This document shows positions 9,354-43,411 of a DNA stretch of 60,655 nt, piece after piece. Source of the DNA: an uncultured Myxococcales bacterium (GTDB taxonomy: Bacteria; Desulfobacterota; Binatia; UBA1149; CAYXZP01); assembly GCA_964469485.1 (NCBI GenBank), contig CAYXZP010000002.1:1-60655 (forward strand). Direction: 5' to 3'. The position numbers were made by a program, and so were the translations under genes. The number at the start of each line of letters is the position of its first letter. Position 1 is the first letter of the stretch. Below the pieces are notes generated by a model. That model did no database searches and had not been told where the DNA came from. It saw only the letters and a list, made by a program, of their open reading frames with translations.

Positions 9354-11201
9354 ATGCTGCGAGCGGCCCTCATAGGAGCCCTCGTCTGGGCCGTGACGAT
9401 TGTTGCGGCGGCAAGCGCGCACGCGACCTTCAGTCGCGAACAGGTGATCTGCCGGGCGGCGGTCGCGCGTTCGGCCGCGAAGTTTGCCCAGCGAGCGGCC
9501 AATCACACGGCCAAGTGCCACAGCAGGCGCGACCGGCACAGATCCAAGGCCAGCGACCGGGCGGATTGTAACACCCTGGCCTACGGCGCGACAGAGCGGC
9601 TCGGCAAGGTCGAAGCGAAGCTGCGCTCCACCATAGCTACCCGTTGCAGCGCCAGGGCCGGCAACCAATGCGATCCTACGGCCATGAACTATCGGGAATG
9701 CCCGGGGATCTGCGGTGCGACGATCGCGACCATCGGGGATCTTACCGACTGTGTCGTCTGTCTGGTCACGGACTCGGTCGAGGAGATGTCCGATCTTACC
9801 CAGGGCAGTCCGGTCATAGGCCGCTGTAATGGCGGCGAGTACGACGGGCTCCCTTGTTATTCCTGCACGGGTGGCGCGGAGCCGGGCACCGCTTGCAACA
9901 CGGCGGCTGATTGCGAACTCGACGTTTGCGTCGAGGACCTTGGCGCAGGCGACGGCAATGGCGATGGTCTTTGCAACCTCGACGAGACCTGCCACTGCGA
10001 ACAGGATCCCTTGCTTCTGTGTAGCGCCACAAGCGCCACGCTATGCGAAAATGTGGAATGCACGGCCGGAGGCAAAGACGGCCTGGCGTGCAGTAAGGAC
10101 GACGATTGCCAGGCCCCCGGCAGCAGTCCGCCCCCGAGCGGGAGTTGCCACGACAGTGTGTGCAGGCTGCCTTGCGCTTCGAACAACGCTCAGACCGCCA
10201 AGTGCCACTACACTTTCTGTGAGGGCGGTAGCAACGATGGCGGTTTCTGCTCTGCTTATGGCAGATGCCCGGACCCAGGCGTTTGCACGCCGATCTTGGA
10301 GCGAACCTTGCGTAGCTGTCGTGCGGTGGTCGGCAAGAAACAGGCGCAGCACCTTGGCGTGCTGCTCAAGGAGCGTGTCAAGTGCCAGGCCGCCGAGGAG
10401 TTTGCCGGCGCCACCGACACCGACTGGTGTGCGTTGGTCAATCCGCAGAACAAGGTCGGCAAGATACGCGCCAAGGGTGAGCGCAGCGTGAGGAGGCGCT
10501 GTGGGTCGGGGCAGGCGCCGGAAACGCCCGCGAACTGTGCTTGCGAGACCGGTTCGCTCGATGGTTACAGTGGCATCGACGACGCGGACTGTCTCGCTTA
10601 CTGCGTCTTCGAGGAGTCGGATGCCGCCGGTTCCGGCCTCTTCGAGACCTTCTACTCCTTGGTGGTCACTTGCGGGGATGGTTACCAGGCCCCGGACGAG
10701 GAATGTGACGACGGCAACCTCATCGACGGCGACGGCTGCGACTCGAACTGCACCCCGACGGCCTGCGGCAATGCGGTCGTTACCGCCGGCGAGGCATGTG
10801 ACGACGGTAACCTCAGTGACGGTGACGGCTGCGACTCGAATTGCACCCTGCCCGCCACCACGACCACCACCACCCTGCCGGCCTCATGGACGCAGGTCCG
10901 GCAGATCCTCGAGCCGAGTTGCAGCGGCTGCCACGGTGCTGTGGCAATAGGGCCGGACAACAACTTGACCGGACTGCACGGGGCCGACGGCGGTTATCAG
11001 ATCTTGGTCGATGGCCTCTCGACCTGCGCCGGCGATCCCATGCTGGTCACGCCGGGCGATCCCGCAGCCAGCTTCCTGTACAACAAGGTGGCGGGGGCGG
11101 CACCGGCCTGTGGTGTGCAGATGCCGATGGGCCTCTCACTCGGCAGCGGGCAGGTCGAGACGATCCGTTCCTGGATCGCCGGCGGCGCGCTCGATGACTG
11201 A
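9354..11201 (+). CDS. Secreted cysteine-rich modular protein B (615 aa) ending in a PSCyt1-like CxxCH domain
   Basis: Signal peptide 'MLRAALIGALVWAVTIVAAASAHA'. Two helical Cys modules, two Myxococcus-type repeats, a Thr linker 'PATTTTTTLPA', then a C-terminal CSGCH domain. Divergent from paralogue A. Confidence 0.9.
   Translation: MLRAALIGALVWAVTIVAAASAHATFSREQVICRAAVARSAAKFAQRAANHTAKCHSRRDRHRSKASDRADCNTLAYGATERLGKVEAKLRSTIATRCSARAGNQCDPTAMNYRECPGICGATIATIGDLTDCVVCLVTDSVEEMSDLTQGSPVIGRCNGGEYDGLPCYSCTGGAEPGTACNTAADCELDVCVEDLGAGDGNGDGLCNLDETCHCEQDPLLLCSATSATLCENVECTAGGKDGLACSKDDDCQAPGSSPPPSGSCHDSVCRLPCASNNAQTAKCHYTFCEGGSNDGGFCSAYGRCPDPGVCTPILERTLRSCRAVVGKKQAQHLGVLLKERVKCQAAEEFAGATDTDWCALVNPQNKVGKIRAKGERSVRRRCGSGQAPETPANCACETGSLDGYSGIDDADCLAYCVFEESDAAGSGLFETFYSLVVTCGDGYQAPDEECDDGNLIDGDGCDSNCTPTACGNAVVTAGEACDDGNLSDGDGCDSNCTLPATTTTTTLPASWTQVRQILEPSCSGCHGAVAIGPDNNLTGLHGADGGYQILVDGLSTCAGDPMLVTPGDPAASFLYNKVAGAAPACGVQMPMGLSLGSGQVETIRSWIAGGALDD
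10671..10844 (+). repeat. Two tandem Myxococcus-type cysteine-rich repeats in protein B
   Basis: 'CGDGYQAPDEECDDGNLIDGDGCDSNC' and 'CGNAVVTAGEACDDGNLSDGDGCDSNC'. The DNA copies 10704-10755 and 10797-10848 differ at about 5 of 52 positions (period 93 nt). Confidence 0.85.
10887..11198 (+). other. Planctomycete-cytochrome-c-like (PSCyt1-type) domain with heme motif CSGCH
   Basis: 'WTQVRQILEPSCSGCHG...LVTPGDPAASFLYNKV...MPMG..LSLGSGQVETIRSWIAGGA' follows the PSCyt1 pattern (CxxCH ... pG.p..S.L ... MP ... WI..GA). CSGCH is at 10920-10934. Confidence 0.65.
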
Positions 11202-19503: not shown

Positions 19504-20544
19504 TTATAATGGTCGGGTGCCGCTCGTGGCCAACCAGTCGGCGACCTCGCGGGCCGTTTCGTCCGGCAGGCCGGCGTAGGCGGCCGCCAGACGCTCCCTG
19601 GCGCCGGCGTCCATCGCGCAGCGGCCCCGTTCCTGGAAGGACCTGGCGTCCTCGGCCAGGCGTTCGGCCAACCCCGCCGAGCACAAGCGGGCCAGGGCCG
19701 CGCGAAAGGAAACTTGCGGGTCATAGGCCCGGCCCTGGCGGTAGCGGTCGGCCAGCGTTGCCAGCGGGATACGCGATAGTCGAGCTTGCAGCATCGGGTT
19801 AACCGCGTGGCCGGCCACGAGGTCGGCGAGGCCGGCGTCCGCTTTGCCGAAGCCGCGCAGGTGTAGGAAGTCTGCGCGCGCTACGTCGTTGACGGGGTAA
19901 TTGTCCCAGAGAAAGGGACGCCGCCCGATGCGACCGGCGACCTCGCGCAGGTGCCCGGGGGGATAGTCGGCCGACATGACCGACTGCCCTGTCCAAAAGA
20001 TGTCCGTGTCGGGGTCGAGCAGCCGGCCGAGTTCCTCGAGGTAGCCGTCGGGCCGGCGGCCGAAGACCTCATCGAGCAGCGGGTCGTCGCTGTAGTAGGT
20101 CGGGCAGACCAGCAGGCGCGCTGGTGCCGCGGCCTCGGCAAGGCGAGCTACGATCTCGACCTGTTTGTCGACCAGGTCCTCCACGTCGCCCCGCATGTCG
20201 TCGAAGAGTATCGCCAGCAGGTCGAGGCCCATGTCGCGCAGTCTCCCGGCCTTGGCTGCGAGCGCGGGACCGACCAGGCTGATGTCTTCCTGCCAGGCCC
20301 CGGCGGGGCTCAGCCCCATCCCCCAGGCCAGTCCCGCGTCGCGGTAGCTCTGGGCTGTCCGTAGCAATTGCCGAAGCTCGTTGCCGGTCCAGTCCGAGCG
20401 CCAGTCATCTCGCAGGAAGGGGTCGTTCTTGGGGGCGTAGATGTAGAACCGGTAGCCCTGTTCGGCCAAGAATGGCGCCAGGCTACGGCGGGCTTCCCAG
20501 CGCCAGGGAGGTCCGTAAAACCCCTCTATCAATCCGTAGTTCAA
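19504..20544 (-). CDS. GH84-family beta-N-acetylglucosaminidase (O-GlcNAcase-like), no signal peptide
   Basis: 'LIEGFYGPPW', 'IYAPKNDP', catalytic 'LFDDM' (DD at 20197-20202), 'CPTYY', 'WTGQ', 'WDNYPVND' and 'NPM' match conserved GH84 blocks in order. Confidence 0.85.
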   Translation of the reverse strand: MNYGLIEGFYGPPWRWEARRSLAPFLAEQGYRFYIYAPKNDPFLRDDWRSDWTGNELRQLLRTAQSYRDAGLAWGMGLSPAGAWQEDISLVGPALAAKAGRLRDMGLDLLAILFDDMRGDVEDLVDKQVEIVARLAEAAAPARLLVCPTYYSDDPLLDEVFGRRPDGYLEELGRLLDPDTDIFWTGQSVMSADYPPGHLREVAGRIGRRPFLWDNYPVNDVARADFLHLRGFGKADAGLADLVAGHAVNPMLQARLSRIPLATLADRYRQGRAYDPQVSFRAALARLCSAGLAERLAEDARSFQERGRCAMDAGARERLAAAYAGLPDETAREVADWLATSGTRPL

Positions 20545-20648: not shown

Positions 20649-22538
20649 ATGAAGGCCCTCACCACGCTGCTGCTCTTACTTGTCTGCCTGGGCTCGCCCG
20701 TGGCCGTCGCGGCCGGCTCGACCGACGTGGCCGCGGCCGATGATCTCTGCCTCTCCACCGACGACCCCTGTATCGTCAACGACACCTATACGGTCTTGGA
20801 CGGCAGTACCCTCGACTTCGGCAGCAGGCAGCTGCGCATCTCCAGCGGCGGTCAACTCGACATAGGCGCGGGCACGGTGACCATACTGTGCGGGGGCTTG
20901 CTCGTCGACAGTACCAATGGTGTGGCCATCAAGGCCAGCGGCGATGATTTCAGCGGCGGCGAGCTTACCGTGCGGGCCAGCCGCACCTGCGAAAACGACG
21001 ACACTCAGACCTGTCTCGAGCACGTCGAATGCACCGGCGACTGCACCGGCGGGGACGGCACCATATCCCTGGGGGCCAAGATCACGGGCAGCAACGAGGA
21101 GATGCCGGCCACAATCACGCTATATGCTGCCGGCGACATCACCATCGACAAGAAGATCACACTTGCCGGGACCACATCCGATTCGGACGGAGGCGAGCTC
21201 GACATCGAATCCTATCTCGGCTCCGTCACCATCAGCGCCGTCATCGACGTGACCTCGGGCGGGGATTCCACCGGCGGCGAGGTCACCATAACCGCCAGCG
21301 ACGATGTCACGGTTGGCAGTGAGATCGACGCGTCGGGGGGGGATTTCGGCGGCGGCGAGGTCACCATAACGGCGGATGATGATGTGAACATCAGCGCCGA
21401 CATCAACGTCAGTTCGAGCACCGGTGGAGGCGATGGGGGCAGCTTGACGGTGACCGCGGGCGGCGACATATCCATGAGTTCGTCGGGCTCCGGCAACATC
21501 GTTGTCCAGGCCAACGGCAATACATCGAGTGACAATTTTTCCGGAGACGGCGGCTGGCTTACCTTCACGGCAAGCGGCGACATGGCGATTGCGTCGACCG
21601 CTCGCTTGCGTACCAACGGTCCGGCGCCCGACGGGGGCGGGGGCATGGTCGAGCTCACGGCATCGGGCGACATCTCCGTGGCCGGAAGGGTCACTGCGCT
21701 CGGCAAAGGGAATAGCGGTTATGGCGGAGACGTCGACATCGCCGCGCAAGGGTCGATAAGCGTCTTGAGTACCGGCGAGATAGACGCCACGGGCAAGGGT
21801 AGTGCCGGGACCATCGGGCTGCTGGCAACGGGGGCCATAGATTTTGCCGGTGAGGCCGATGCGTCCTCGTCGAGCACCGGGTTGGGCGGCGCCATCAGTC
21901 TGACGGCCGGTACCAGCATAGAGCTTTCCGGCGACCTCCTCGTCGACGGCAGTCCCTCGGGAACCACCAATGGCACCACCGACCTGTCGGCCTGCGATGT
22001 CACGCTGGCTTCGGGTGCGTTGATCGATAACGAGGGCTCCTACGGCAAGAACAGTATAACCGCCGCCGATTCGATCACGGCAGCCTCGGGCTCGGAGGTG
22101 TTCGCAGACAGCAGCAGCGGCACGAACCTGTTCACATACGGTGCCCCCGGCAACACGCCTTCGCTGCTCGGCACCGTAAGCCCCGCCGCTTCGCTGGTGC
22201 TGAGCGACACTCTGATCAGCTGCAGCACCGAGGCGCCCGCCACCACCACAACCACCACAACGACCAGCGAGTCTACGACGACGACTATCAGTTCGGGCGG
22301 GGAGTGCGGGGATGTGACGGGCGATAGCCAAGTAATGGTCGGGGATGCACTCGCCATCCTCAAGGCGGCCGTCGGCATCACGGTAACCATAGTCTGTGAT
22401 GAAGACCAGGTGGGTTATTGCGGGGATGTGACCGGCGACTGCGATATAACGGTCTCCGATGCGCTGGCCATCCTCAAGACGGCGGTCGGCATCACGGTAA
22501 CCATGGACTGCACCGTGACCTGCCCCGCTGGCACCTAA
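20649..22538 (+). CDS. Secreted beta-helix-repeat protein F with a Thr linker and C-terminal dockerin-like pair
   Basis: ATG 20649 gives signal peptide 'MKALTTLLLLLVCLGSPVAVAAG'. About 20 degenerate repeats of the type 'GGEVTITASDDVTVGSEIDASGG'. The N-terminal head is homologous to that of 22947-27059. Confidence 0.85.
   Translation: MKALTTLLLLLVCLGSPVAVAAGSTDVAAADDLCLSTDDPCIVNDTYTVLDGSTLDFGSRQLRISSGGQLDIGAGTVTILCGGLLVDSTNGVAIKASGDDFSGGELTVRASRTCENDDTQTCLEHVECTGDCTGGDGTISLGAKITGSNEEMPATITLYAAGDITIDKKITLAGTTSDSDGGELDIESYLGSVTISAVIDVTSGGDSTGGEVTITASDDVTVGSEIDASGGDFGGGEVTITADDDVNISADINVSSSTGGGDGGSLTVTAGGDISMSSSGSGNIVVQANGNTSSDNFSGDGGWLTFTASGDMAIASTARLRTNGPAPDGGGGMVELTASGDISVAGRVTALGKGNSGYGGDVDIAAQGSISVLSTGEIDATGKGSAGTIGLLATGAIDFAGEADASSSSTGLGGAISLTAGTSIELSGDLLVDGSPSGTTNGTTDLSACDVTLASGALIDNEGSYGKNSITAADSITAASGSEVFADSSSGTNLFTYGAPGNTPSLLGTVSPAASLVLSDTLISCSTEAPATTTTTTTTSESTTTTISSGGECGDVTGDSQVMVGDALAILKAAVGITVTIVCDEDQVGYCGDVTGDCDITVSDALAILKTAVGITVTMDCTVTCPAGT
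22305..22511 (+). other. Two Cys-bracketed dockerin-like repeats (protein F)
   Basis: 'CGDVTGDSQVMVGDALAILKAAVGITVTIVC' (22305-22397) and 'CGDVTGDCDITVSDALAILKTAVGITVTMDC' (22419-22511). Each has an EF-hand-like loop plus a helix, as in dockerin type I. Confidence 0.6.
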
Positions 22539-22946: not shown

Positions 22947-25900
22947 ATGGTAGAACACGTTCGCAGATCGCCGAGCCTGTTGCTCTCGGCGCTGATGTTG
23001 CTGGCCTGGGCGGCGCCCGCGGCGGCAGCCGAGGTCAGCTCAGCCGACGACATATGTGCGGCCAACGCCGACCCCTGCGTCATCGACTCCAACCTGACGG
23101 TTGCGAGCGGCTCGACCCTGGATTTCGGGGCCCGTGACGTCGAGATAACAGGGGCGGGGCGTCTGAGCCCCGACGGAGGTTTGGTCACTCTCCTGTGTGG
23201 GAACCTTTCGGCGACAGGCGGCAGCAAGAAGGTAGCGATCAAGCTCCTGGACGGAGCCTCTCTCACCATTAAGGCCCGGCGCAGCTGTTCGTTCGATGCT
23301 ACCGCCGCCTGTCTGACAGATGACGATTGTGCCGGCTGGACCGTGTGCAACGTCGGAACCGGAAGCATCGACCTCAACGCCAAGGTCGTGGGGCAGCAGG
23401 AATATCCCGGGAGTCTGAGAATGGACGCCGCGGACGACATCACGGTTGGCCAGACCATCAACCTTTCGGGCACCGAACCCGACTCGGACGGTGGCGACCT
23501 GGACCTCACGGCCAAGGCGGGGAACGTGACGGTCAGCGGCGACATAGACCTCACCTCGGGGGGTAACGGGATGGGGGGCGTCATCACCGTTAACGCGGGG
23601 GGCGATTTCGCGGTCTACGACGAGATCGATGCGCGCGGCGGGGACGGCGATGGCGGGTCGATCTACGTGACCGTCGGCGGGGATGTGTTGATAGACGCCG
23701 ATCTCAAGATGAACTCGCGCGCGGGGGCCGGCGACGGCGGCGACATCGACATCACTGCCGACGGCAACGTCGTCGTCGGTGCCGACGACAGCACCGCGGT
23801 GGTCATCGATGGCGACGGGATGGGCCCCACCGATTTTGGCGGCGGTTCGGGCAGCGACGTGGCCCTGCTCGCCGACGGCAACATCGTGGTCGGCAAGAGC
23901 GCGCTCATTCAAACAAACGGAGCCACTCCGGACGGGGATGGCGGCTATATCGATCTGACGGCCGGCGGCGACATCACTCTGGGCGGTACCATCGAGGCCC
24001 GCGCCCGGGGTAGCGAAGGGAGCGGGGGCGAGGTGTGGATGGATGCCGGTGGCGATATCACGATCGAGAGCACCGGCGAGCTTACGACCACAGCCAAGGA
24101 CGACGGAGGCGATATCTGGCTGGAATCAGATGGCGCTCTCGTGCTCGCCGGCGCGGCCACATCCACAGGCGGAAGCGATAGCATGGGCGGCGACATGATG
24201 CTCGACGCCGGCACCGATGCGTCCATAAGCGGGACACTCAAGACCAATGTGGGCGGCAGTATATCTATCGACGTTGGTACCGATGTCTCCATAAGCGGTT
24301 CGCTCGCGAGCAAGAGTTCCGAGCCCGGCGACATCGAGGTCTCGGCCTGCCGGGTCTCCCTGTCGAGCGGCGCGAGCATCGAGGCCAAAGGCGGTGCCGC
24401 CACCAACTTGTTCACGATCGGCGAGAGCATGACGGTCGCAAGCGGAGCCACGGTCAAGGCCAACCAGAACTCGGGCGTGAACAGCATCGTCTATCGTGAC
24501 CAGTACAAGCCGCCTGTCATCGAAGGGAGCGTGACCCCGGCGGCCACCCTCACGGTCAACCCCAGCCTTGCCGGATGCCCGGTATGCGGGAACTCGGAGG
24601 TCGATTACGGCGAGACTTGCGACGATGGCGGTACTGTGGGCGGCGACGGGTGCGCTTCGACCTGCCAGCATGATGCATGCGTCGCCGCTACGTCCGGATA
24701 TCCGACCGTTCCTGTCTGTGATGATGGCGACCCCTGTACCAATGACTCTTGCGGCCGTAGCAGCGGGCAATGCTCCAATCTGATCGACTGCACGATAAGC
24801 GGGTGTTCGTCGCACAGCGACTGTATGGTCCCCACGACGACAACGACAACGACCACGACGACGACCACCACCACCACGGTTGACCCTGGGGGCACTACCA
24901 CCAGCACGACCTCCAGTTCGACGAGCAGTTCGTCGACCACTACAAGCACGACCACCACGACGACCACGACCAGCTCGACCAGCACGACCACCCTACCGCC
25001 CGCCGCGGACGACGAATGTCCGGGCGTGGCGATGGTCGAGTTCTTTGCTGCAAGCGGCGGGGCATGCACGGACGATGACGATTGCGGTCCGGGTAGCTGT
25101 CAGGGCGGGTATTGTCAGACCCAGACACGGCTCGACGCCGGCAGCACAGGCGTCCAGCACGGTGGCGACGTCAACGACCGGAGCACCTTGCATGTCGCCC
25201 TCGACTGCGCCGGGAACTTCCCTTGCGGCGTCTGCGACATAGACGGGATAGACGGCGGGACCGGCGCGAGTTGCCGTTGTGCGGCCGACAACCGCAAGGT
25301 CTGTGACCGTGCGCTCAAGAACGACTACAACGATTGCGGGAACTATAGCGACCGTGCCTGCAACTGCTATCTGGGACCGCCGTTGCCGCTGTCCGCGGGA
25401 AACACACCGGTTTGTGTCGTAAACCGTTTGGCCCGGGACATCTCGGGCACGGTCGATGTCGATCTTGGGCGGGCCGAGGTCGAACTGTCGCTACGGAGCC
25501 GGGTGTTTCTCGGCGCCTCGGTGATCCAGCCATGTGCGTACTGTTCGGGTGACCCGACGGCGGGCGACGGTCTTCGCCAGGGCCTTTGTGTGGGCGGCGA
25601 CAACGACGGGCAGAGTTGCGACGGCGGCGCCGACAACAGCAGCTTCCCTGCTCCCGGGGGAGGGTTCCACAGTCTTGATTGCATGCCGACCGCTGGAAAG
25701 AATGTATCGGGTGAGGGTCTGCGCATAGACCTCACGCACACGACCGGTTCCAGCGAGCTCGGTCACGGTCTCAACTGCGGCTTCCCCTTTATCGGCCACA
25801 CCTGCGCGTGCCGCACCTGCAGCTACGATACGAGCATACCGTGTTCGAGCACGGCCGATTGCAGCGCCGCGTATGCCGGCAGCTGCACCTCGCTCGGAAC

Positions 25901-27059
25901 GGGCATCAACACGGGTCGCAACTCTTGCAGCGGTTCGCAATGCGAGGCCATCGATAGCGGCGGGGTCCTGGCACAGTGCGCGACCGGACCGGATGACAAG
26001 TTCTGCAACGGCATATTGCGCGCCGACGGCGAGGGGTTCCTTGCCTGCACTTCGGCTACGGACTGTTCGGCGGCGACCATCGGCATCGATGCCGGGGACT
26101 GCACCCTCTCGCGCCGCAGACCCTGCTTCCTCGCCACCATCGTGGCCGGCGGCCAAGCGGACCCGTATTTCCCCCTCTTTGGCGCCGCCTTTTGCGTACC
26201 CCCCACTACGAACGCGGGGATCAACGGTGTTGCCGGTCTTCCCGGCCCCGTCCGCACGCTCACCCAGGCGGAACTCGAGCTTCGCTGCGCCAACAGTCCG
26301 AACACGGTCTACCTGCCGGCCCGCGGCGGATGTGCAGGCAGCCTTGTTTCGACCACGACCATACCGGTGACCCCCGTCTCGACCACCATGACGACCCCCG
26401 TCTCGACCACCATGACGACCACCGTCTCGACCACCACGACGCCGGCGACCACCGTGCCCGCAACCACTGCCACCGTGCCGGCTGGCAGCTACGAGCTGAC
26501 CTTCCAGCTTGATGACCCCGTGACCGTCGGGGCGCTCAGTTTCACTATTGGCTACAGCGATGCCGCCGGTGGTTTCGACGGCGAGGGCGACGCGGTCGAG
26601 TGTGCTGTTGCCGACGCGCTGTTGCCGCCCGCGATCGTCGCGTTCAACGACCTCGAGAGCAGCTCAACGCTGACAGTGGGAATTCTCAACACGTCGGGCC
26701 TCGAAGGTCCGGGCGAGCTGGTAACCTGCAGCTTCACGAGCGCAAACGAATCTGTCCTGCAAATCACGGTGACCGATGCTTCGACTCCCGCGGGAGTTGC
26801 GCTGTCGCCCGCACCAACGGTGAGCATGGTCGAGCTATCTGCCGGTCTCTGCGGCGATGTCACGGGCGACAGTTCGATCTCGGTGACCGACGCGCTGATG
26901 ATACTGAAAACCGCCGTTGGGATCAGCGTCGACCTGATCTGTGCTTCCACCAGCGCTCTTTGCGGTGACGTTAACGACGACGGTTCGGTCTCGGTGACCG
27001 ATGCGTTGTTGGTACTGAAAGCCGCCGTTGGTATTTCCGTGACCCTCATTTGCAGTTGA
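22947..27059 (+). CDS. Giant secreted modular protein C (1370 aa): beta-helix repeats, Cys-rich repeat, Thr/Ser linker, module X, cohesin-like domain, dockerin-like pair
   Basis: Signal peptide 'RRSPSLLLSALMLLAWAAPAAAA'. Uninterrupted ORF. Modules are described in separate features. Confidence 0.9.
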   Translation: MVEHVRRSPSLLLSALMLLAWAAPAAAAEVSSADDICAANADPCVIDSNLTVASGSTLDFGARDVEITGAGRLSPDGGLVTLLCGNLSATGGSKKVAIKLLDGASLTIKARRSCSFDATAACLTDDDCAGWTVCNVGTGSIDLNAKVVGQQEYPGSLRMDAADDITVGQTINLSGTEPDSDGGDLDLTAKAGNVTVSGDIDLTSGGNGMGGVITVNAGGDFAVYDEIDARGGDGDGGSIYVTVGGDVLIDADLKMNSRAGAGDGGDIDITADGNVVVGADDSTAVVIDGDGMGPTDFGGGSGSDVALLADGNIVVGKSALIQTNGATPDGDGGYIDLTAGGDITLGGTIEARARGSEGSGGEVWMDAGGDITIESTGELTTTAKDDGGDIWLESDGALVLAGAATSTGGSDSMGGDMMLDAGTDASISGTLKTNVGGSISIDVGTDVSISGSLASKSSEPGDIEVSACRVSLSSGASIEAKGGAATNLFTIGESMTVASGATVKANQNSGVNSIVYRDQYKPPVIEGSVTPAATLTVNPSLAGCPVCGNSEVDYGETCDDGGTVGGDGCASTCQHDACVAATSGYPTVPVCDDGDPCTNDSCGRSSGQCSNLIDCTISGCSSHSDCMVPTTTTTTTTTTTTTTTVDPGGTTTSTTSSSTSSSSTTTSTTTTTTTTSSTSTTTLPPAADDECPGVAMVEFFAASGGACTDDDDCGPGSCQGGYCQTQTRLDAGSTGVQHGGDVNDRSTLHVALDCAGNFPCGVCDIDGIDGGTGASCRCAADNRKVCDRALKNDYNDCGNYSDRACNCYLGPPLPLSAGNTPVCVVNRLARDISGTVDVDLGRAEVELSLRSRVFLGASVIQPCAYCSGDPTAGDGLRQGLCVGGDNDGQSCDGGADNSSFPAPGGGFHSLDCMPTAGKNVSGEGLRIDLTHTTGSSELGHGLNCGFPFIGHTCACRTCSYDTSIPCSSTADCSAAYAGSCTSLGTGINTGRNSCSGSQCEAIDSGGVLAQCATGPDDKFCNGILRADGEGFLACTSATDCSAATIGIDAGDCTLSRRRPCFLATIVAGGQADPYFPLFGAAFCVPPTTNAGINGVAGLPGPVRTLTQAELELRCANSPNTVYLPARGGCAGSLVSTTTIPVTPVSTTMTTPVSTTMTTTVSTTTTPATTVPATTATVPAGSYELTFQLDDPVTVGALSFTIGYSDAAGGFDGEGDAVECAVADALLPPAIVAFNDLESSSTLTVGILNTSGLEGPGELVTCSFTSANESVLQITVTDASTPAGVALSPAPTVSMVELSAGLCGDVTGDSSISVTDALMILKTAVGISVDLICASTSALCGDVNDDGSVSVTDALLVLKAAVGISVTLICS
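24834..24993 (+). repeat. Low-complexity Thr/Ser linker coding tract (ACS/AGC/TCG codon runs)
   Basis: Encodes 'TTTTTTTTTTTTTTTVDPGGTTTSTTSSSTSSSSTTTSTTTTTTTTSSTSTTT'. Confidence 0.9.
25014..26335 (+). other. Unassigned large Cys-dense module X, copy in protein C
   Basis: Aligns block by block with 30681-31934 and 41927-43408, e.g. 'CNCYLGPPLPLSAGNTPVCVVNRLARDISGT', 'LDCMPTAGKNVSGEGLRIDL', 'FCVPPTTNAGINGVAGLPGP'. Confidence 0.75.
26373..26444 (+). repeat. 24-nt tandem repeat x3 (PVSTTMTT units) in the second linker of protein C
   Basis: cccgtctcgaccaccatgacgacc occurs at 26373-26396 and is identical at 26397-26420. A diverged third copy is at 26421-26444. Confidence 0.9.
26478..26846 (+). 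other. Cohesin-like beta-sandwich module (tentative), protein C
   Basis: 'YELTFQLDDPVTVGALSFTIGYSDAAGGFDG...ELVTCSFTS...VSMVEL'. Resembles the module at 41107-41500 ('LVLFTCLTVVG...VSMEVL'). Confidence 0.4.
26850..27053 (+). other. Two Cys-bracketed dockerin-like repeats (protein C)
   Basis: 'CGDVTGDSSISVTDALMILKTAVGISVDLIC' (26850-26942) and 'CGDVNDDGSVSVTDALLVLKAAVGISVTLIC' (26961-27053). The second has the full D-x-N-x-D-G...D calcium loop. Confidence 0.65.
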
Positions 27060-29831: not shown

Positions 29832-31937
29832 GTGCGAAGGATTGCACGCAGTTGTGCGCTACTGGGGTTTCTTTCGATGGTCTCGCTGGCCGCTGCGGCC
29901 CCGGCCGCGGCCTGGACCTTTTACGAGGGCAAGTGCCGCGCCGAGATCTCCAAGACCCTGGCCAAGTACAGCTCCACCCAGTTCAAGAACATCGGAAAAT
30001 GTCACCGCCTGCGTAACAGGCGCCAGCTTCCGGAGGCGTGGGACTGCAACGACCCAGCAACCGCCGACCGTGAAGGTAAGGGCGAGCGAGCTGCTATAAG
30101 ACTCCGCAGGGCTATAGGGGGCACTGCCGACCGCTGCCATCACAAGATCAGCGGGGAGTCCTTCGACACCGTCCTGGCCAACTTCACGCGTTGCCCCTCA
30201 CCGGCTGCCGAGACCGATGATGGCGGCGCGACCACGGGCATCGACAGCTTCGCCGAGCTGGCCGACTGCCTACTTGCACTCGGCGACGGTCTAGTCTCGC
30301 AGCTTGGCGGGAGCCTGCTCGGTACGCCAGTGCCGACGGAGGCTCGTCCGGGGGCCCGGCGCTGTCATTGGATGATCGCCAAGATGACAGGGAAATACCT
30401 CAACACCGTGCAGCACGTACGCGGCCGAGCGCAAGCGAAGGCGGATCGCTCGGGGGTGCACGAGGTGTACGGTCAGGTCGGGGCCGACCTTAACCGGAAG
30501 ATCAACAAGGCCGAAGCAAAGCTCGCCGGTGCCATATACAAGAAATGCGGGCGCTTCCCGCTGGAGGACCTCGACGACATCCAGTCCTGCGCCGACGACA
30601 GCGAGGGGCTTGCCGAGTGCGTGGTCGAGATAGCCCGGCGCAGCGGCCGCGGTCTGGCCGCGCTCGGGTTCGAGCTGCCCGAGCACTGCCCTAGCCGGGC
30701 CCTCCTGACGGCGCGGGCCGGAATCGGCGATGAGATCACGGCCACCCGCCTCGACGTCGGCTTCACGGGCCTGGCCCACGGCATGGACATCATGGACGGC
30801 ATTGTAAGCGCGGTTAGCCTCGACTGTGACCCCGACTGCGGCGATTGTGAGGTGAGCCAGGACCCACTCCGAAACCTTCCGACCGGTTTCTGTCGTTGCG
30901 AAGCGAACCCCACGGTTAAGTGCGACGTGATAGCCGGCCCCGACGCCGACGATTGCGGGGGCGGGATGTGCCGCTGCATGTTCGGGCCACCGCTGGCCAT
31001 CGCTGCCGGGGGTGTTCCTGTCTGTGTGGTCAACGAGCTTCAGGGCGACCTGGAGGGAACGGCCGATGCCGGGACCGGGGAGGCCACGGTCTCGGTGGGC
31101 CTGCGCTCGAAGGTGCACCTCGGCATCGCTGGGCTGCAGCCATGTCCCATCTGCGAGGGGGATGGTGTCATCAACGACGGCATGGACGGCGGTGTCTGCA
31201 ATGGAGGGCCGCGCGACGGGCTCCCCTGTGACGCGAACGCCACCGATCTGACCTTCGGCGCCGTCAGCTACGAGTGCCTGCCCGAACCCGGCAGCGGGGT
31301 CACCGGCAGCGGACTGGTGCTGTCGATGACGATGACCAGTGACGTTTCATCATTGCCCTTCGGCACGACCTGCGATGCGCCGGCCGACACGATGCAGTGT
31401 GCCTGCGCGGTATGCTCGGGCGACAGTTCGCTTGCCTGCAACGACGACGAGACATGCAAGGAGGTCGAGGCCGGCGACTGCACGAGCAGCGGGGGCGGCG
31501 CCGTTCGCTTTCCCAACCAGTGCGGTGACGGGGTCTGTCTCGATCAGGGCAACGGCAATGGTGAGTGTGGTGCTGCCGGTCCGGTCGAGAACTACTGCGA
31601 CAACATGCTGCGCGCTAACGGTCGGGGCCTTCTCGCTTGCCAGACCGACGAGGATTGCCTGACTTACGCCTCCCAGTGTCCCGATGGCGACTGCGGGGTC
31701 TGCAGCATCGCCGAACCGCGCGCCTGCTTCCTCGATCCCATTACGGCAAGTGGCGGGGCAACCCCCGATCGCGCCGACATGGTTACGACCTTTTGCGTGC
31801 CGCCGACAGCTAGTGCCGCTGTCAACAGCGTGTTGGGACTTCCGGGCGCGGCTCGCTTCAAGGTGAGTTTCGACGTCGAGGGACAGTGCGCCAACGGCGC
31901 GCCCTTCGATAAGCCCGGCGGCTCCAACTGCATGTAG
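29832..31937 (+). CDS. Secreted cysteine-rich protein E (701 aa): two helical Cys modules plus module X
   Basis: GTG start. Signal peptide 'MRRIARSCALLGFLSMVSLAAAAPAAA'. The N-half has 'CRAEISKTLAKYSSTQFKNIGKC'-type modules and the C-half is module X. Confidence 0.9.
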   Translation: MRRIARSCALLGFLSMVSLAAAAPAAAWTFYEGKCRAEISKTLAKYSSTQFKNIGKCHRLRNRRQLPEAWDCNDPATADREGKGERAAIRLRRAIGGTADRCHHKISGESFDTVLANFTRCPSPAAETDDGGATTGIDSFAELADCLLALGDGLVSQLGGSLLGTPVPTEARPGARRCHWMIAKMTGKYLNTVQHVRGRAQAKADRSGVHEVYGQVGADLNRKINKAEAKLAGAIYKKCGRFPLEDLDDIQSCADDSEGLAECVVEIARRSGRGLAALGFELPEHCPSRALLTARAGIGDEITATRLDVGFTGLAHGMDIMDGIVSAVSLDCDPDCGDCEVSQDPLRNLPTGFCRCEANPTVKCDVIAGPDADDCGGGMCRCMFGPPLAIAAGGVPVCVVNELQGDLEGTADAGTGEATVSVGLRSKVHLGIAGLQPCPICEGDGVINDGMDGGVCNGGPRDGLPCDANATDLTFGAVSYECLPEPGSGVTGSGLVLSMTMTSDVSSLPFGTTCDAPADTMQCACAVCSGDSSLACNDDETCKEVEAGDCTSSGGGAVRFPNQCGDGVCLDQGNGNGECGAAGPVENYCDNMLRANGRGLLACQTDEDCLTYASQCPDGDCGVCSIAEPRACFLDPITASGGATPDRADMVTTFCVPPTASAAVNSVLGLPGAARFKVSFDVEGQCANGAPFDKPGGSNCM
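30681..31934 (+). other. Module X, copy in protein E (36 Cys in about 418 aa by my count)
   Basis: 'CRCMFGPPLAIAAGGVPVCVVNELQGDLEGT', 'QPCPICEGDG', 'FCVPPTASAAVNSVLGLPGA'. Confidence 0.75.
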
Positions 31938-39376: not shown

Positions 39377-42300
39377 ATGGAACGCGTGCGTTTCGCGGTA
39401 GGTACAATATCGCTCACGCTACTTTTGTCGGCGGTCCCGTACGGCCTGCCGACCGCTGCCGTCGCTCAGGCCACAGAGGAACCCGACGCCCCGCTCTCGG
39501 AGTCGGCGTACAGCTGCCAACAGGCCCTCATGCGCGTGTCGCACCGCTACCTGACGCGCAACCTCAAGATCCGTCATAGGTGCCGTGCCAGGGCGTCCGC
39601 GGCGGCCGCCTGCCTGACCGGGCTCGGCGACGACAAGACGGCCAAGGCCATCGCCAAGCTGCGCGAGCGCGTAGATACCGCCGTGCTCCGCAAGTGCCGC
39701 AACGTCAACCTGAACGACCTTTATTTCCCCGGCCCCTGTGACCTGATCACGACCGGCACCTGTCATATCGACCAGTGCACCGACAGCTACCGAGAATGCC
39801 GGGACACGCTCGAGTCCGGAGATGCGGTCGCTCCGCCGGATTGTGCGGCCGGCCAGTGCATCGAGCGCAACATGTACGTGGGGTGCACGACCCACGCCGA
39901 CTGCCGCGGCGAGGCGGGGACCTGCAAGACCCCCGGCCAGGTTTGTGAAGGCGGTCCCTTTGCCGGGCGGACCTGCCAGGCCGACGCCGACTGCGCCAGC
40001 AGCGCCGAGTGTAAAGACAAGACGGTCGGGGTTTTCGATGTTACGGACCTGAGCACCTGTTTCAAAAGCCTGCTCGACACCAACAGCGAGATCCTTCTCG
40101 ACCAAGAGTATCCCGCCGATTCGTCGACCGGGGCCACGGCGAGAGCGCGCCAGGGCAGAAAAGGCAAGACGAAAAAGAAGGGTTGTGTCGAACGCGCGGC
40201 CACGGCCGCTTCCAGGATGGTGTTGCGCGAACTGCGCACGCGTCAACGCTGCCTGTCCGACGAACGCGCACCCGACACCGGTGAAGAGGCTGCCGATGCC
40301 GGTGAGGATACAGCAGAAGAAGCAACCGGCTGTCGCAAGAACGTGGTCCCCTACGGTCCGGGAACGGGCAACACCCGCGCCGATGCTATCATCGTGCAGG
40401 CCTATGTTCGGCTGTTGTTGCTCGTGCCCTCGGTCTGCGAAGATTCGGACCTTGCCGGCAAGACCTACACCAGTTTCGATCCCACGGGAGCCCCCTTCGA
40501 TGTTTACGACCTGCGCCAGTTCCTGTTCGACACCCACCGTTCCCTCAACCGTGACCTATTGAGCGTTGCCTTTCCCCCGAAGCCGGTATGCGGCGACGGC
40601 GAGCTGCAAGGCTGGGTCGAGGAATGCGACGACGGCAACATATTCAGCGACGACACTTGTCTCCCGAACTGCGCGGCCGCGCGTTGCGGTGACGACCAGG
40701 TCTGCTCGCACACGAGTTGCGAGAGCGGGCCTTCGAGCGGGGCCGAAGAATGCGACGACGGCGCATTGAACTCAGACACGGTCTCTGATGCCTGCCGGAC
40801 CGATTGCGCGAGCCCATTTTGTGGCGACGGGGTGGTTGACTCCGGCGCGGGCGAGGCCTGTGACAGCGGGGCCGCCAACTCGGATACGGCTGCGGATGCC
40901 TGTCGTACGACCTGCGCGCTGGCGACCTGCGGAGACGGGGTCGTCGATAGCAGCGAAGCCTGCGACATTGGCCGCCAGTGCCGGGATGCCGACGGGGTGC
41001 CCGGCTCGCTGTGTACGACCGACGACGACTGCGCGGCCGGCCAGACCTGCGAACCCGGCGGCGAGTCCGCGACATGCGATAGCGACTGCACGCTTGCCCT
41101 CGACCGGGCCCCCGCCGAGGTCAGCGTGACGGGCAGCGGCGTATTCAACTCCATTACTCTGACTTGGGACCTCTCCGTGGTCGGCAAGGCGGCGGCCGTT
41201 GTGGCCGAAGATAAGGACGGGAATCCTGTCTGTGCCGTGTCGACCCAACTGGCAGCGCAAGGCTGCTTGTACAGCCTGGGGAACTACCTGTCGGGAAGCG
41301 AGCTTACGGCCACCGTGGACGGCTGTGATATTGCCCTCGATGAGGCGGCGCCCTTAGTTCTGTTCACCTGTCTTACCGTGGTCGGCGAGGCCGGCGCGGA
41401 GCCCGGTGGCGATGTCACCGTGGACGATGTGGTGTGCAGCGAAGACGGCTGTGGCGAGACCGCCGCCGACATCACCGTGAGCATGGAGGTGTTGGAGGCG
41501 GACTCCTGTGGTGACGGCACCGTCAACTACGCACGTGGCGAAGCATGCGACGATGGCAACCTGTCCGACAATGACGCTTGCCTGAGCGATTGCGCGCTCG
41601 CCCATTGCGGCGACGGCCATGTGTGTAGTGACGGTGCCTGTTCACCCGCAGAGGGCGGACCGGGGGAGGAACTCTGCGATGACGGCAACGACGACGAGGA
41701 GGACGGTTGCCTGAGCACCTGCCGTACGGTCGCGTGCGGGAACGGGACGGTGGACCCGGGGGAAGACTGCGATGACGGCAACACGGTCGAAAGCGATGCT
41801 TGCCTCAACAACTGCATGGAGGCCGCTTGCGGTGACGGGATCATTTACGCGGGCGTGGAGGAGTGCGACGGTGAGAGCGTAGGTGACTGTGAGTTCTGTT
41901 CGGACCAATGCCGTTGTTTCATCGGCAGGGGCTGTCCCGGCTCCGGCGAACTGACGCTGTATGCGGGCACCGGTGTTTCCTGCGCCGGCGACCAGGACTG
42001 CTTTGACTTCTATGGCGAGCAGTACCCCGGCTCTTGCAACCCCGAGCTCAGCCGTTGTACGACCAAGACGCTGCTCACCACGGGTTCCACCGGTATCGCC
42101 CACGGTGCCGATCTGACCGACAACATTTCCTTGAAGGGGCGGCTACAGTGCCCGGACGCGGCCCCCTGCGGTGATTGCGCCGTAATCGGGCTGATGGCCG
42201 ATAATCCGGACGAAGGCGAGCAGGGCGGCCGGTATTGTCGCTGCGCCGCCGACAACCGCCAATACTGCGATGTGCCGCTGGACTCCGACCCCGATGCTTG

Positions 42301-43411
42301 CGGAGGCTATGAGGACGATTTCTGCAACTGCTACCTAGGCCCGCCCTTGTCTTTCTCGGCCGGCAACACGCCGGCCTGCGTGGTCAACCGCATTGCCCAA
42401 GACACCAAGGGTACGGCGTGGGTGGACGAGGGCAGGGGCGAGGTCGAGGCGCACCTCCGTTCGGTCGCGCATCTTGGCGAGGGTCTTACCGAACCCTGCC
42501 CGTATTGCGTCGGAGATGTGACGCCTTCTGACGGACTGCGTGACGGTGTCTGCAGGAAGGGGGCCAACCAGGGAGAGACATGCGACGGTTGGGGCGTGAA
42601 CACATCCTTCCCCGGCCCCTATGGCATAGCGACTTCCTGCATCGGGGGTCCCAAGGACGGGGACGGTTGCATGATAGACAGCAATTGCGACGAAGAAGGT
42701 GGCGATGGCCTCGGCGTCTGCGGCAACCCCGTGCCCGCTTACCCGAGTCTCGACTGCATGCCTTCAGCCGGCAAGAACGTCAGCGGAGAGGGTCTGCAGA
42801 TCGATCTCATCCAACGCACCGAACGCGTAGAACTGGCTGCCTCGCTAGCGTGCGGGTTCCCGTTCTTCGGGCATAACTGCCACTGCCGTCAATGCACGGG
42901 AGACAGCACCGTACCCTGCAGCGATGATTCGATGTGTGAGGAGGTCGGAGGGACCTGCAGCAGCCTCGGGAGCGGCACGAACGTCGGACCAAATGGGTGC
43001 GACGGCTACCTGTGCTCGGACGTCGATGGCCAAGGAACAGTAGGTGAGTGCACCACCGGCCCCGACTCTAGGTTCTGTGACGGTATGCTGAAGTCCAGCG
43101 GCGATCCGTTCGTAGCCTGTCAGGCCGATGCCGATTGCTCCATAAGCGTGATCGGCTTCGATGCCGGTTCCTGCACCATGGTCAAGAGGCGCTCATGTTT
43201 TCTCGACCCGATAGTGGCGGTCGGCGAAGCGTCGACCACGGCGCCGCTCGGTGCGGCCATCTTCTGCATACCGCCGACCGGCAATGCCGGCATCAACGGT
43301 GTGGCCGGACTCCCGGGCGTGGGGCGGGCGATGAACCACGCCTCCGGCAAACTGTTTTGCGCCAGCGACCCGGGCAAACGCTATGAGCCGGGCCTGGGCG
43401 GCTGCGACTGA
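39377..43411 (+). CDS. Giant secreted cysteine-rich modular protein D (~1344 aa)
   Basis: Possible starts are TTG 39368 (listed), ATG 39377 and GTG 39386; the GTG has GAGGA 8 nt upstream. Signal 'RFAVGTISLTLLLSAVPYGLPTAAVAQA'. Modules in order: helical Cys modules, 4 Cys-rich repeats, cohesin-like module, 4 Cys-rich repeats, module X. Confidence 0.9.
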   Translation: MERVRFAVGTISLTLLLSAVPYGLPTAAVAQATEEPDAPLSESAYSCQQALMRVSHRYLTRNLKIRHRCRARASAAAACLTGLGDDKTAKAIAKLRERVDTAVLRKCRNVNLNDLYFPGPCDLITTGTCHIDQCTDSYRECRDTLESGDAVAPPDCAAGQCIERNMYVGCTTHADCRGEAGTCKTPGQVCEGGPFAGRTCQADADCASSAECKDKTVGVFDVTDLSTCFKSLLDTNSEILLDQEYPADSSTGATARARQGRKGKTKKKGCVERAATAASRMVLRELRTRQRCLSDERAPDTGEEAADAGEDTAEEATGCRKNVVPYGPGTGNTRADAIIVQAYVRLLLLVPSVCEDSDLAGKTYTSFDPTGAPFDVYDLRQFLFDTHRSLNRDLLSVAFPPKPVCGDGELQGWVEECDDGNIFSDDTCLPNCAAARCGDDQVCSHTSCESGPSSGAEECDDGALNSDTVSDACRTDCASPFCGDGVVDSGAGEACDSGAANSDTAADACRTTCALATCGDGVVDSSEACDIGRQCRDADGVPGSLCTTDDDCAAGQTCEPGGESATCDSDCTLALDRAPAEVSVTGSGVFNSITLTWDLSVVGKAAAVVAEDKDGNPVCAVSTQLAAQGCLYSLGNYLSGSELTATVDGCDIALDEAAPLVLFTCLTVVGEAGAEPGGDVTVDDVVCSEDGCGETAADITVSMEVLEADSCGDGTVNYARGEACDDGNLSDNDACLSDCALAHCGDGHVCSDGACSPAEGGPGEELCDDGNDDEEDGCLSTCRTVACGNGTVDPGEDCDDGNTVESDACLNNCMEAACGDGIIYAGVEECDGESVGDCEFCSDQCRCFIGRGCPGSGELTLYAGTGVSCAGDQDCFDFYGEQYPGSCNPELSRCTTKTLLTTGSTGIAHGADLTDNISLKGRLQCPDAAPCGDCAVIGLMADNPDEGEQGGRYCRCAADNRQYCDVPLDSDPDACGGYEDDFCNCYLGPPLSFSAGNTPACVVNRIAQDTKGTAWVDEGRGEVEAHLRSVAHLGEGLTEPCPYCVGDVTPSDGLRDGVCRKGANQGETCDGWGVNTSFPGPYGIATSCIGGPKDGDGCMIDSNCDEEGGDGLGVCGNPVPAYPSLDCMPSAGKNVSGEGLQIDLIQRTERVELAASLACGFPFFGHNCHCRQCTGDSTVPCSDDSMCEEVGGTCSSLGSGTNVGPNGCDGYLCSDVDGQGTVGECTTGPDSRFCDGMLKSSGDPFVACQADADCSISVIGFDAGSCTMVKRRSCFLDPIVAVGEASTTAPLGAAIFCIPPTGNAGINGVAGLPGVGRAMNHASGKLFCASDPGKRYEPGLGGCD
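40589..40981 (+). repeat. First block of about 4 Myxococcus-type cysteine-rich repeats in protein D
   Basis: 'CGDGELQGWVEECDDGNIFSDDTCLPNC', 'CGDDQV...AEECDDGALNSDTVSDACRTDC', 'CGDGVVDSGAGEACDSGAANSDTAADACRTTC', 'CGDGVVDSSEACD'. Confidence 0.8.
41107..41500 (+). other. Cohesin-like beta-sandwich module (tentative), protein D
   Basis: 'VSVTGSGVFNSITLTWDL...LVLFTCLTVVGEAG...ITVSMEVLE'. Alignable in outline with 26478-26846. Confidence 0.35.
41506..41915 (+). repeat. Second block of about 4 Myxococcus-type cysteine-rich repeats in protein D
   Basis: 'CGDGTVNYARGEACDDGNLSDNDACLSDC', 'CGDGHV...ELCDDGNDDEEDGCLSTC', 'CGNGTVDPGEDCDDGNTVESDACLNNC', 'CGDGIIYAGVEECDG'. Confidence 0.8.
41927..43408 (+). 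other. Module X, copy in protein D (with an internal insertion)
   Basis: 'CNCYLGPPLSFSAGNTPACVVNRIAQDTKGT', 'EPCPYCVGDV', 'LDCMPSAGKNVSGEGLQIDL', 'FCIPPTGNAGINGVAGLPGV'. Extra segment 'IATSCIGGPKDGDGCMIDSNCDEEGGDGLGVCG'. Confidence 0.75.

Follow-up and report, generated by a model that had tools for sequence, protein, structure and literature searches.

The window analysed here is a stretch of 60,655 nucleotides from an uncultured Myxococcales bacterium with a GTDB lineage in Desulfobacterota and Binatia (assembly GCA_964469485.1, contig CAYXZP010000002.1, positions 1 to 60,655 of the forward strand). Its G+C content is about 65%, and it encodes a TonB-dependent receptor, a LolA-like protein and MMPL transporters, indicating that the host is Gram-negative. 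Two genes on the forward strand, F and C, are predicted to encode tandem paralogous secreted proteins, both ending in a dockerin-like tail, and C also carries a cohesin-like module only 4 residues upstream of its tail. The features of F and C, and those of gene D, which has a domain in common with C, are collected in Table 1.

Table 1. Features of genes F, C and D and relatives of the domain common to C and D (window positions unless a locus is named; aa, amino acids)
Feature	Position	Strand	Description
Gene F	20649..22538	+	predicted secreted protein, 629 aa with the likely start at MKALTT
F N-terminal cargo domain	20739..22223	+	~495 aa, Gly/Asp-rich, repetitive
F Thr-rich linker	22224..22301	+	
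F dockerin	22302..22520	+	two Cys-bracketed F-hand repeats
F dockerin repeats	22305-22397 and 22419-22511	+	31 residues each, in frame, verbatim
Gene C	22947..27059	+	predicted secreted multidomain protein, 1370 aa
C N-terminal Gly/Asp-rich repetitive domain	23046..24578	+	paralogous to the F N-terminal domain
C single DUF4215 / myxo-type Cys-rich acidic repeat	24576..24671	+	aa 544-575
C long Thr/Ser-rich linker	24828..24995	+	
C Cys-rich domain	25017..26333	+	~440 aa, common to C and D
C Thr-rich linker	26334..26474	+	
C cohesin-like module	26475..26846	+	aa 1177-1300, divergent predicted nine-strand beta-sandwich
C module, family-invariant Cys codons	26601-26603 and 26727-26729	+	
C dockerin	26847..27056	+	two Cys-bracketed F-hand repeats
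C dockerin repeats	26850-26942 and 26961-27053	+	31 residues each, in frame, verbatim
D module, alleged second copy	41108..41500	+	Cys-containing insert between DUF4215 repeats
D C-terminal Cys-rich domain	41933..43408	+	homologous to C 25017-26333
Relatives of the C/D Cys-rich domain	L002:2894-4324; L003:8001-9382		two loci of metagenome-assembled genomes

An earlier note on this DNA had proposed that F and C each end in two cysteine-bracketed repeats of the dockerin type I kind, and all four peptides were found verbatim at the positions it gave. Each repeat starts with C-G-D and finishes in Cys, and positions 1, 5 and 12 of the calcium loop are Asp in all four. The tails were scored against the Pfam model PF00404 (Dockerin_1), whose gathering cut-off is 22.9 bits. 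The 70-aa tail of C reached 36.4 bits alone and 32.3 bits inside a 219-aa fragment, and full-length C fell under the cut-off at 21.9 bits. The tail of F stayed under it even alone (19.9 bits; full-length F, 10.6 bits), so that the score named in the earlier note as a check bore out the tail of C and not that of F. The two tails are 55% identical to each other by BLASTP.

We aligned 38 dockerin units taken from related proteins. The results showed that four cysteines are invariant in all 38 units, at position -1 of loop 1, after helix 1, at position -1 of loop 2 and at the C-terminal end, and the F dockerin occupies all four of these columns. Conservation of this kind across 38 units is not chance, and it upholds the claim that the flanking cysteines are invariant. 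Asp12 of both loops is likewise invariant in 38 of 38 units, and PF00404 matched 37 of them at E<=0.01. When a profile of the units was searched against PDB sequences, the matches were mostly dockerins, every best one among them (4uyq_B, 2ccl_B, 1ohz_B and 1daq_A), and the alignment spanned both loops of the solved dockerins 4uyq_B and 1ohz_B. Ser or Thr occupies position 11 in three of the four window repeats and is frequent there throughout the 38-unit alignment; within either window dockerin, the two repeats hardly differ at their recognition positions. Both features presumably fit the dual binding mode of type I dockerins. Judged by sequence comparison, the tails of F and C are type-I-like dockerins composed of F-hand pairs.

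The four dockerin cysteines (C1 to C4) most likely form two disulfides, and two pairing schemes are conceivable. In known dockerins, residues -1 to -3 before the first calcium loop (G0-D1) clasp the C-terminus, and this 'intramolecular clasp' of Slutzki et al. 2013 stabilises the fold and cohesin binding (PMC3821032). The window dockerins carry Cys at position -1 (C-G-D) and at the C-terminal residue, matching the clasp positions. Two-repeat dockerins of the metagenomic loci L005, L014 and L015 retain the first and last Cys alone, which favours pairing of C1 with C4 and leaves C2-C3 as the second bond. In the alignments with 4uyq_B and 4uyp_B, the C2 and C3 columns hold residues other than Cys, and C1 and C4 lie beyond the aligned range.

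Otherwise unrelated small secreted proteins encoded at L010:403-1134 and L013:524-1189 have a single F-hand repeat in a Cys bracket (C-GDVTGDG ... V.LTC) at the mature N-terminus, which favours a clamp on each repeat (C1-C2 and C3-C4). A two-repeat version with a separate Cys bracket for each repeat was seen at L018:142-705, and the half-dockerin units of these three loci may dimerise. With the two-Cys variants and the published clasp behind it, the C1-C4 plus C2-C3 arrangement appears at least as well supported as the per-repeat clamps.

For the cohesin-like module of C, a word-index search with the module and its dockerin gave two hits, one of which was a real relative, P0001, a 235-aa protein in which a signal peptide is followed by the module and, behind a Thr linker, by a four-Cys dockerin. 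A two-sequence profile was then searched exhaustively with HMMER and found 555 representative proteins (50% identity clusters) at E<=1e-3, 177 of them at E<=1e-10, and many of these proteins hold two to four copies of the module. A word-index search with a 60-sequence alignment returned 0 hits, against the 555 of the exhaustive search; families so divergent are practically invisible to word-index methods. A hidden Markov model (HMM) built from 278 family domains set the module boundaries listed in Table 1, and when it was run with filters off over the six frames of the window, the C module was the sole match (E 2.7e-37).

In an alignment of 60 diverse modules, two cysteines (C43 and C85) are invariant and one tyrosine nearly so (Y27, the Tyr of a G-x-L-x-F-x-V-x-Y strand); all three are present in the C module. 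The Pfam Cohesin model PF00963 is the most frequent Pfam match among the family, yet a weak one (2 of 60 members, best E 1.1e-3). The C module was not assignable to an anchor-type or a dockerin-adjacent subgroup of the family, as the comparison did not discriminate between the two. In their source databases, family members are named 'DUF4215 domain-containing protein [Candidatus Binatia bacterium]' (MFQ5478966.1), 'cysteine-rich repeat protein' (JGI) or 'hypothetical protein'.

We ran AlphaFold2 on the 60-module alignment with the C module as target. The model has nine strands, a mean predicted local distance difference test score (pLDDT) of 94.6 and a predicted template modelling score (pTM) of 0.87, and, together with the HMM boundaries, it agrees with the beta-sandwich-like module that the earlier note had seen upstream of the C dockerin. 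Foldseek comparison with the PDB showed that about 40 of the top 50 matches were cohesins, including types I, II and III and non-cellulosomal ones. Type I cohesins were represented by 1ohz, 1anu, 2ccl and 4ums, and type II by 5g5d, 3kcp, 1tyj and 2y3n; cohesins of R. flavefaciens and R. bromii were also matched, as were the non-cellulosomal A. fulgidus 2xdh and C. perfringens 2jh2, 2o4e and 2vo8. Well-superposed matches had query-normalised template modelling (TM) scores of 0.55-0.68 at a Foldseek probability of 1.0. The model has one Cys of the invariant pair on strand 4 and the other on strand 7; these strands lie side by side in the 9-1-2-7-4 sheet of the cohesin jelly-roll, so that the pair would fit a disulfide. 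The C module is thus confidently predicted to have a cohesin-type fold, a nine-stranded jelly-roll beta-sandwich, and on this model it is a cohesin-fold member of a new divergent family, not a member of PF00963.

The architecture of the family was surveyed in 149 representatives. A typical member combines one to four cohesin-like modules with DUF4215 repeats and a dockerin with the four invariant Cys, and the commonest full architecture is two cohesin-like modules, DUF4215 repeats, a dockerin and a further cohesin-like module. The dockerin lies in the same polypeptide in 60 of the 149. Using a crude lipobox test, we scored a lipoprotein signal in 32 of the 89 members that have no dockerin and in none of the 60 that do (Fisher p = 5e-9). 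Such a split resembles what would be expected for anchoring scaffoldins on one side and adaptor or cargo proteins on the other. A tandem pair of module-family genes was found on a related 575-kb contig, and one lipoprotein-type member stands alone among metabolic genes, so that the genes of putative partners may well lie apart.

A metagenome scan with the dockerins found 15 loci, some of them with four-Cys dockerins. The region L008:3-14385 contains three tandem genes for proteins of ~1000-2750 aa, each with a terminal four-Cys dockerin (CGDxTGD...C..C.CDFxG...C); in the 16-kb L008 locus (680-kb contig, 68% GC) no cohesin-like module was found.

The earlier note had also placed a second copy of the module in D, at 41107-41500, a range that is out of frame (41108-41500 is in frame). 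This copy did not survive comparison: BLASTP against the C module gave E 0.33 over 18 residues, the 278-domain HMM with filters off matched nothing in D at E<=10, and hhalign returned a probability of 0.3%. A single-sequence AlphaFold2 model of the D segment was unusable (pLDDT 38.9). The insert of ~135 aa to which the segment belongs (41075-41509) shares 58% identity with its counterpart in a D orthologue from a deep-sea metagenome-assembled genome (MAG; L003:7104-7544), whereas the L002 paralogue lacks it and has additional DUF4215 repeats at that place; a homologue search of the D module found no relatives beyond the L003 orthologue. By these sequence tests D is lost as a socket, and of the proposed docking of F and C to both C and D there would remain, at best, docking to C or to cohesin-like proteins whose genes lie elsewhere.

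What D has in common with C is the Cys-rich domain of ~440-490 aa (47% identity, E 8e-142, BLASTP), with the conserved motifs CRCAADNR, NCYLGPPL, AGNTPxCVVNR, SLDCMPxAGKNVSGEGL and NAGINGVAGLPG. Pfam, NCBIfam and PDB sequence searches with this domain gave no match. A two-motif scan of 185,579 species genomes found relatives in two 'Deltaproteobacteria' MAGs only, and neither a cohesin-like module nor a dockerin was found in these loci, L002 and L003. From the sequence comparisons, D appears to stand outside the plug-and-socket pair and to have only this cargo domain in common with C.

Taken together, these results make it probable that F and C belong to a non-cellulosomal plug-and-socket assembly built from disulfide-braced dockerins and a divergent cohesin-fold module, the docking itself being the conjectural part. 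F and C would be exported into an oxidising compartment, where their dockerins would become disulfide-braced and loaded with calcium. The dockerins could then plug, in a Ca-dependent manner, into cohesin-like modules; candidate sockets are the C module and, above all, cohesin-like proteins encoded elsewhere in the genome, which in related organisms would include dockerin-less lipoproteins. The outcome would be large, cysteine-rich, non-enzymatic and adhesin-like cargo assembled or tethered at the cell surface. Such a logic would parallel the anchoring, adaptor and cargo components of the cellulosome, minus carbohydrate-active enzymes.

A broader proposal can be made only tentatively, and we hold it to be possible rather than probable: the library-undetected, disulfide-braced cohesin type and the four-Cys dockerins may build up a surface-assembly hierarchy in Binatota and in uncultured Gram-negatives related to them, in which lipoprotein anchors, adaptors bearing module and dockerin alike, and cargo that has a dockerin only, F being an example, would display large, non-enzymatic, Cys-rich adhesin-like domains instead of glycoside hydrolases. 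Such a system would amount to a new cohesin-dockerin type and be the first scaffoldin-like one of its kind in the Binatota lineage.

Several results weigh against plug-and-socket docking. Position 3 of the calcium loop, where Asn or Asp is expected, is Thr in three of the window repeats and Asn in the fourth. The C module was matched by none of the Pfam and NCBIfam models, and in Pfam nothing appeared at E<=10, so that the PF00963 score, which the earlier note had named as a check on its cohesin character, gave it no support. A search of the module-family profile against PDB sequences gave no cohesin and only spurious PD-1 matches at E ~1, and hhalign against three CipA cohesins gave a probability of 0.3%. 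The E-values of the Foldseek matches were modest, 4e-3 at best; the cohesins at the top of that list speak for the cohesin-like fold that the earlier note had supposed. The family HMM, in the six-frame search, found no second cohesin-like module and no anchor protein in the window. At the 15 dockerin loci, no cohesin-like module was found within the flanking DNA, which covered up to 8 kb; some contigs were only 1-3 kb long. The 4-residue spacing in C and the frequent fusion of dockerin and module could also mean a rigid intramolecular pair instead.

The last of these points is the core of the alternative that survives best, which we nevertheless regard as unlikely. The module would be a structural partner of the adjoining dockerin, comparable to the X-module of type II/III X-module-dockerin pairs (XDoc), or a spacer, and the dockerins would bind another receptor, a glycan or the outer-membrane surface. 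The short spacing in C speaks for it, as does the finding that a module lies within <=11 residues after the dockerin in 31 of the 60 dockerin-bearing relatives. The four-Cys dockerins at loci with no such module nearby, and the lack of sequence homology between functional cohesins and the module, point the same way. Against this stand the distribution and the shape of the module: most family modules lie away from dockerins, as N-terminal copies behind Thr linkers, 55 of the aligned modules belong to dockerin-less lipoproteins, and the structural neighbours are cohesins, not X-modules. A purely intramolecular role would also leave the strict split between lipoproteins and dockerin-bearing members unexplained.

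Binding between module and dockerin within one chain, a self-capped or auto-inhibited state that would block assembly or give way to head-to-tail polymerisation of C, is improbable. C does hold exactly one socket and one plug, and the joint presence of the two in one polypeptide is the rule in the family, but judging from cohesin geometry a dockerin on a linker of 4 residues could probably not get to the canonical 8-3-6-5 face, and F would be a plug that has no socket. Cellulosomal scaffoldins that carry both modules, such as CipA and ScaA, avoid self-recognition. It is also very doubtful that the repeats are generic Ca-binding, EF-hand-like stabilisers of extracellular Cys-rich proteins that play no part in docking, and the sandwich an unrelated immunoglobulin-like or jelly-roll domain of convergent topology, for although EF-hand Pfam models weakly match some dockerin units, the structural E-values are modest and cohesin profile homology was not found, Dockerin_1 fits the units far better and more consistently than any other model, the PDB profile matches are nearly all dockerins, the co-occurrence of module and dockerin is far too systematic, and the top structural matches are nearly all cohesins rather than mixed sandwiches.

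The N-terminal domains of F and C, the remaining cargo candidates, are 39% identical across 515 aa (E 5e-88, BLASTP). They measure ~500 aa and repeat a GGD...T/V...G pattern suggestive of a beta-solenoid. A Pfam scan gave no match to this domain, a search of PDB sequences gave nothing convincing beyond one weak match at E 0.2, and no relatives turned up when metagenome contigs were scanned by pattern. For the DUF4215 repeat of C, the Pfam model PF13948 gave E 0.021 and the TIGR02232 model 20.2 bits, each under its own cut-off. The Pfam scan found no glycoside hydrolase (GH), carbohydrate esterase (CE), polysaccharide lyase (PL) or carbohydrate-binding module (CBM) in F or C, as the earlier note had observed for GH and CBM. 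A near-identical version of C, P0003 in an ENA assembly, reads VDLSC in place of VDLIC, a difference at the residue directly in front of the second Cys of the dockerin (window 26940-26942). An internal Met was taken as the start of the P0003 gene, and C may thus be mis-annotated publicly as a protein of 675 aa.

Divergent to F lies a gene for a GH84 beta-N-acetylglucosaminidase (19507-20544, reverse strand; PF07555, E 9e-58), which codes for the catalytic domain alone. The mechanical open reading frame (ORF) of F starts at 20472. The start at 20649 is more likely, because the longer ORF would overlap the divergent GH84 gene, and by visual inspection the N-terminus at MKALTT is signal-peptide-like. 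GH84 enzymes are classic carriers of non-cellulosomal cohesin and dockerin modules in C. perfringens. Six-frame HMM and regular-expression scans found neither dockerin repeats nor a cohesin-like module in the GH84 gene, and its adjacency to F may be coincidental. The region is enriched in giant cysteine-rich ORFs, with DUF4215 repeats in C, D and two other large ORFs, namely 4010-9037 on the reverse strand (1675 aa, with a weak NosD-like beta-helix match) and 9354-11201 on the forward strand (615 aa). A further ORF at 29832-31937 on the forward strand (701 aa) had no match in the Pfam scan.

Few protein-protein plugs are known to be as strong as cohesin-dockerin pairs, and synthetic biology makes wide use of them; their biology outside cellulosomes is poorly understood. 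The locus reveals a large family with a predicted cohesin fold that Pfam and NCBIfam miss, whose members are labelled 'DUF4215' or 'hypothetical', and which is systematically coupled to four-Cys dockerins in a barely studied candidate phylum. Among the papers searched, none linked dockerins with Binatia or DUF4215. If the binding is true, these proteins would represent a new redox-stabilised cohesin-dockerin type, possibly orthogonal to current pairs and of use in designer assemblies, and would give a first functional handle on many giant cysteine-rich secreted proteins of such bacteria. It would also mean that the scaffoldin principle operates on Gram-negative surfaces via lipoprotein anchors.

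Several known systems resemble what we describe. Non-cellulosomal cohesin-dockerin modules have reportedly been known since at least the survey of Peer et al. in 2009 (FEMS Microbiol Lett 291:1, cited in PMC2930009). The closest cases are the C. perfringens GH84/GH33 toxin complexes (2jh2, 2o4e, 2vo8) and A. fulgidus 2xdh, which, like the present locus, combine a cohesin-fold module with a type-I-like dockerin outside any cellulose context, in some cases on a single chain. With TM 0.62-0.68, 2jh2 and 2xdh rank among the closest structures to the C module. Unlike these pairs, the C module goes unseen by the cohesin models of Pfam and NCBIfam, an internal pair of cysteines is invariant in its family, as are four cysteines in the dockerin, the partners are DUF4215 repeats and large Cys-rich domains instead of glycosidases, and the host is an uncultured Gram-negative lineage.

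The cellulosomal scaffoldins of C. thermocellum (CipA/SdbA), A. cellulolyticus (ScaA/B/C) and R. flavefaciens, a hierarchy of anchoring, adaptor and primary scaffoldins built on cohesin-dockerin pairs of types I, II and III, also carry several cohesin-type modules on Thr-rich linkers, and the family seems to provide counterparts of their parts: dockerin-bearing members would correspond to adaptors, anchored dockerin-less members to anchoring scaffoldins, and F to dockerin-only cargo. In contrast to the cellulosome, F and C have no GH, CE, PL or CBM cargo, the anchor in the family is a lipoprotein signal instead of SLH or sortase, the modules are disulfide-rich and have no profile homology to CipA cohesins, and the window holds a single cohesin-like module.

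The dockerin clasp described above likewise joins a residue at -1 to -3 to the C-terminal end, and two-Cys variants elsewhere retain cysteine exactly at -1 and at that end, but the known clasps are non-covalent, by aromatic stacking, hydrophobic contacts or salt bridges (PMC3821032), whereas the one proposed here would be a disulfide. Proteins annotated as DUF4215 or TIGR02232 ('myxo_disulf_rpt') include family members that carry solely such an annotation, which is silent on the cohesin-like and dockerin modules. The kind of system is therefore already known. What sets this variant apart, on sequence and model grounds, is a predicted cohesin fold missed by the libraries and bearing a putative internal disulfide, together with a four-Cys dockerin, DUF4215 and Cys-rich cargo, and candidate lipoprotein anchors, in an uncultured Gram-negative lineage.

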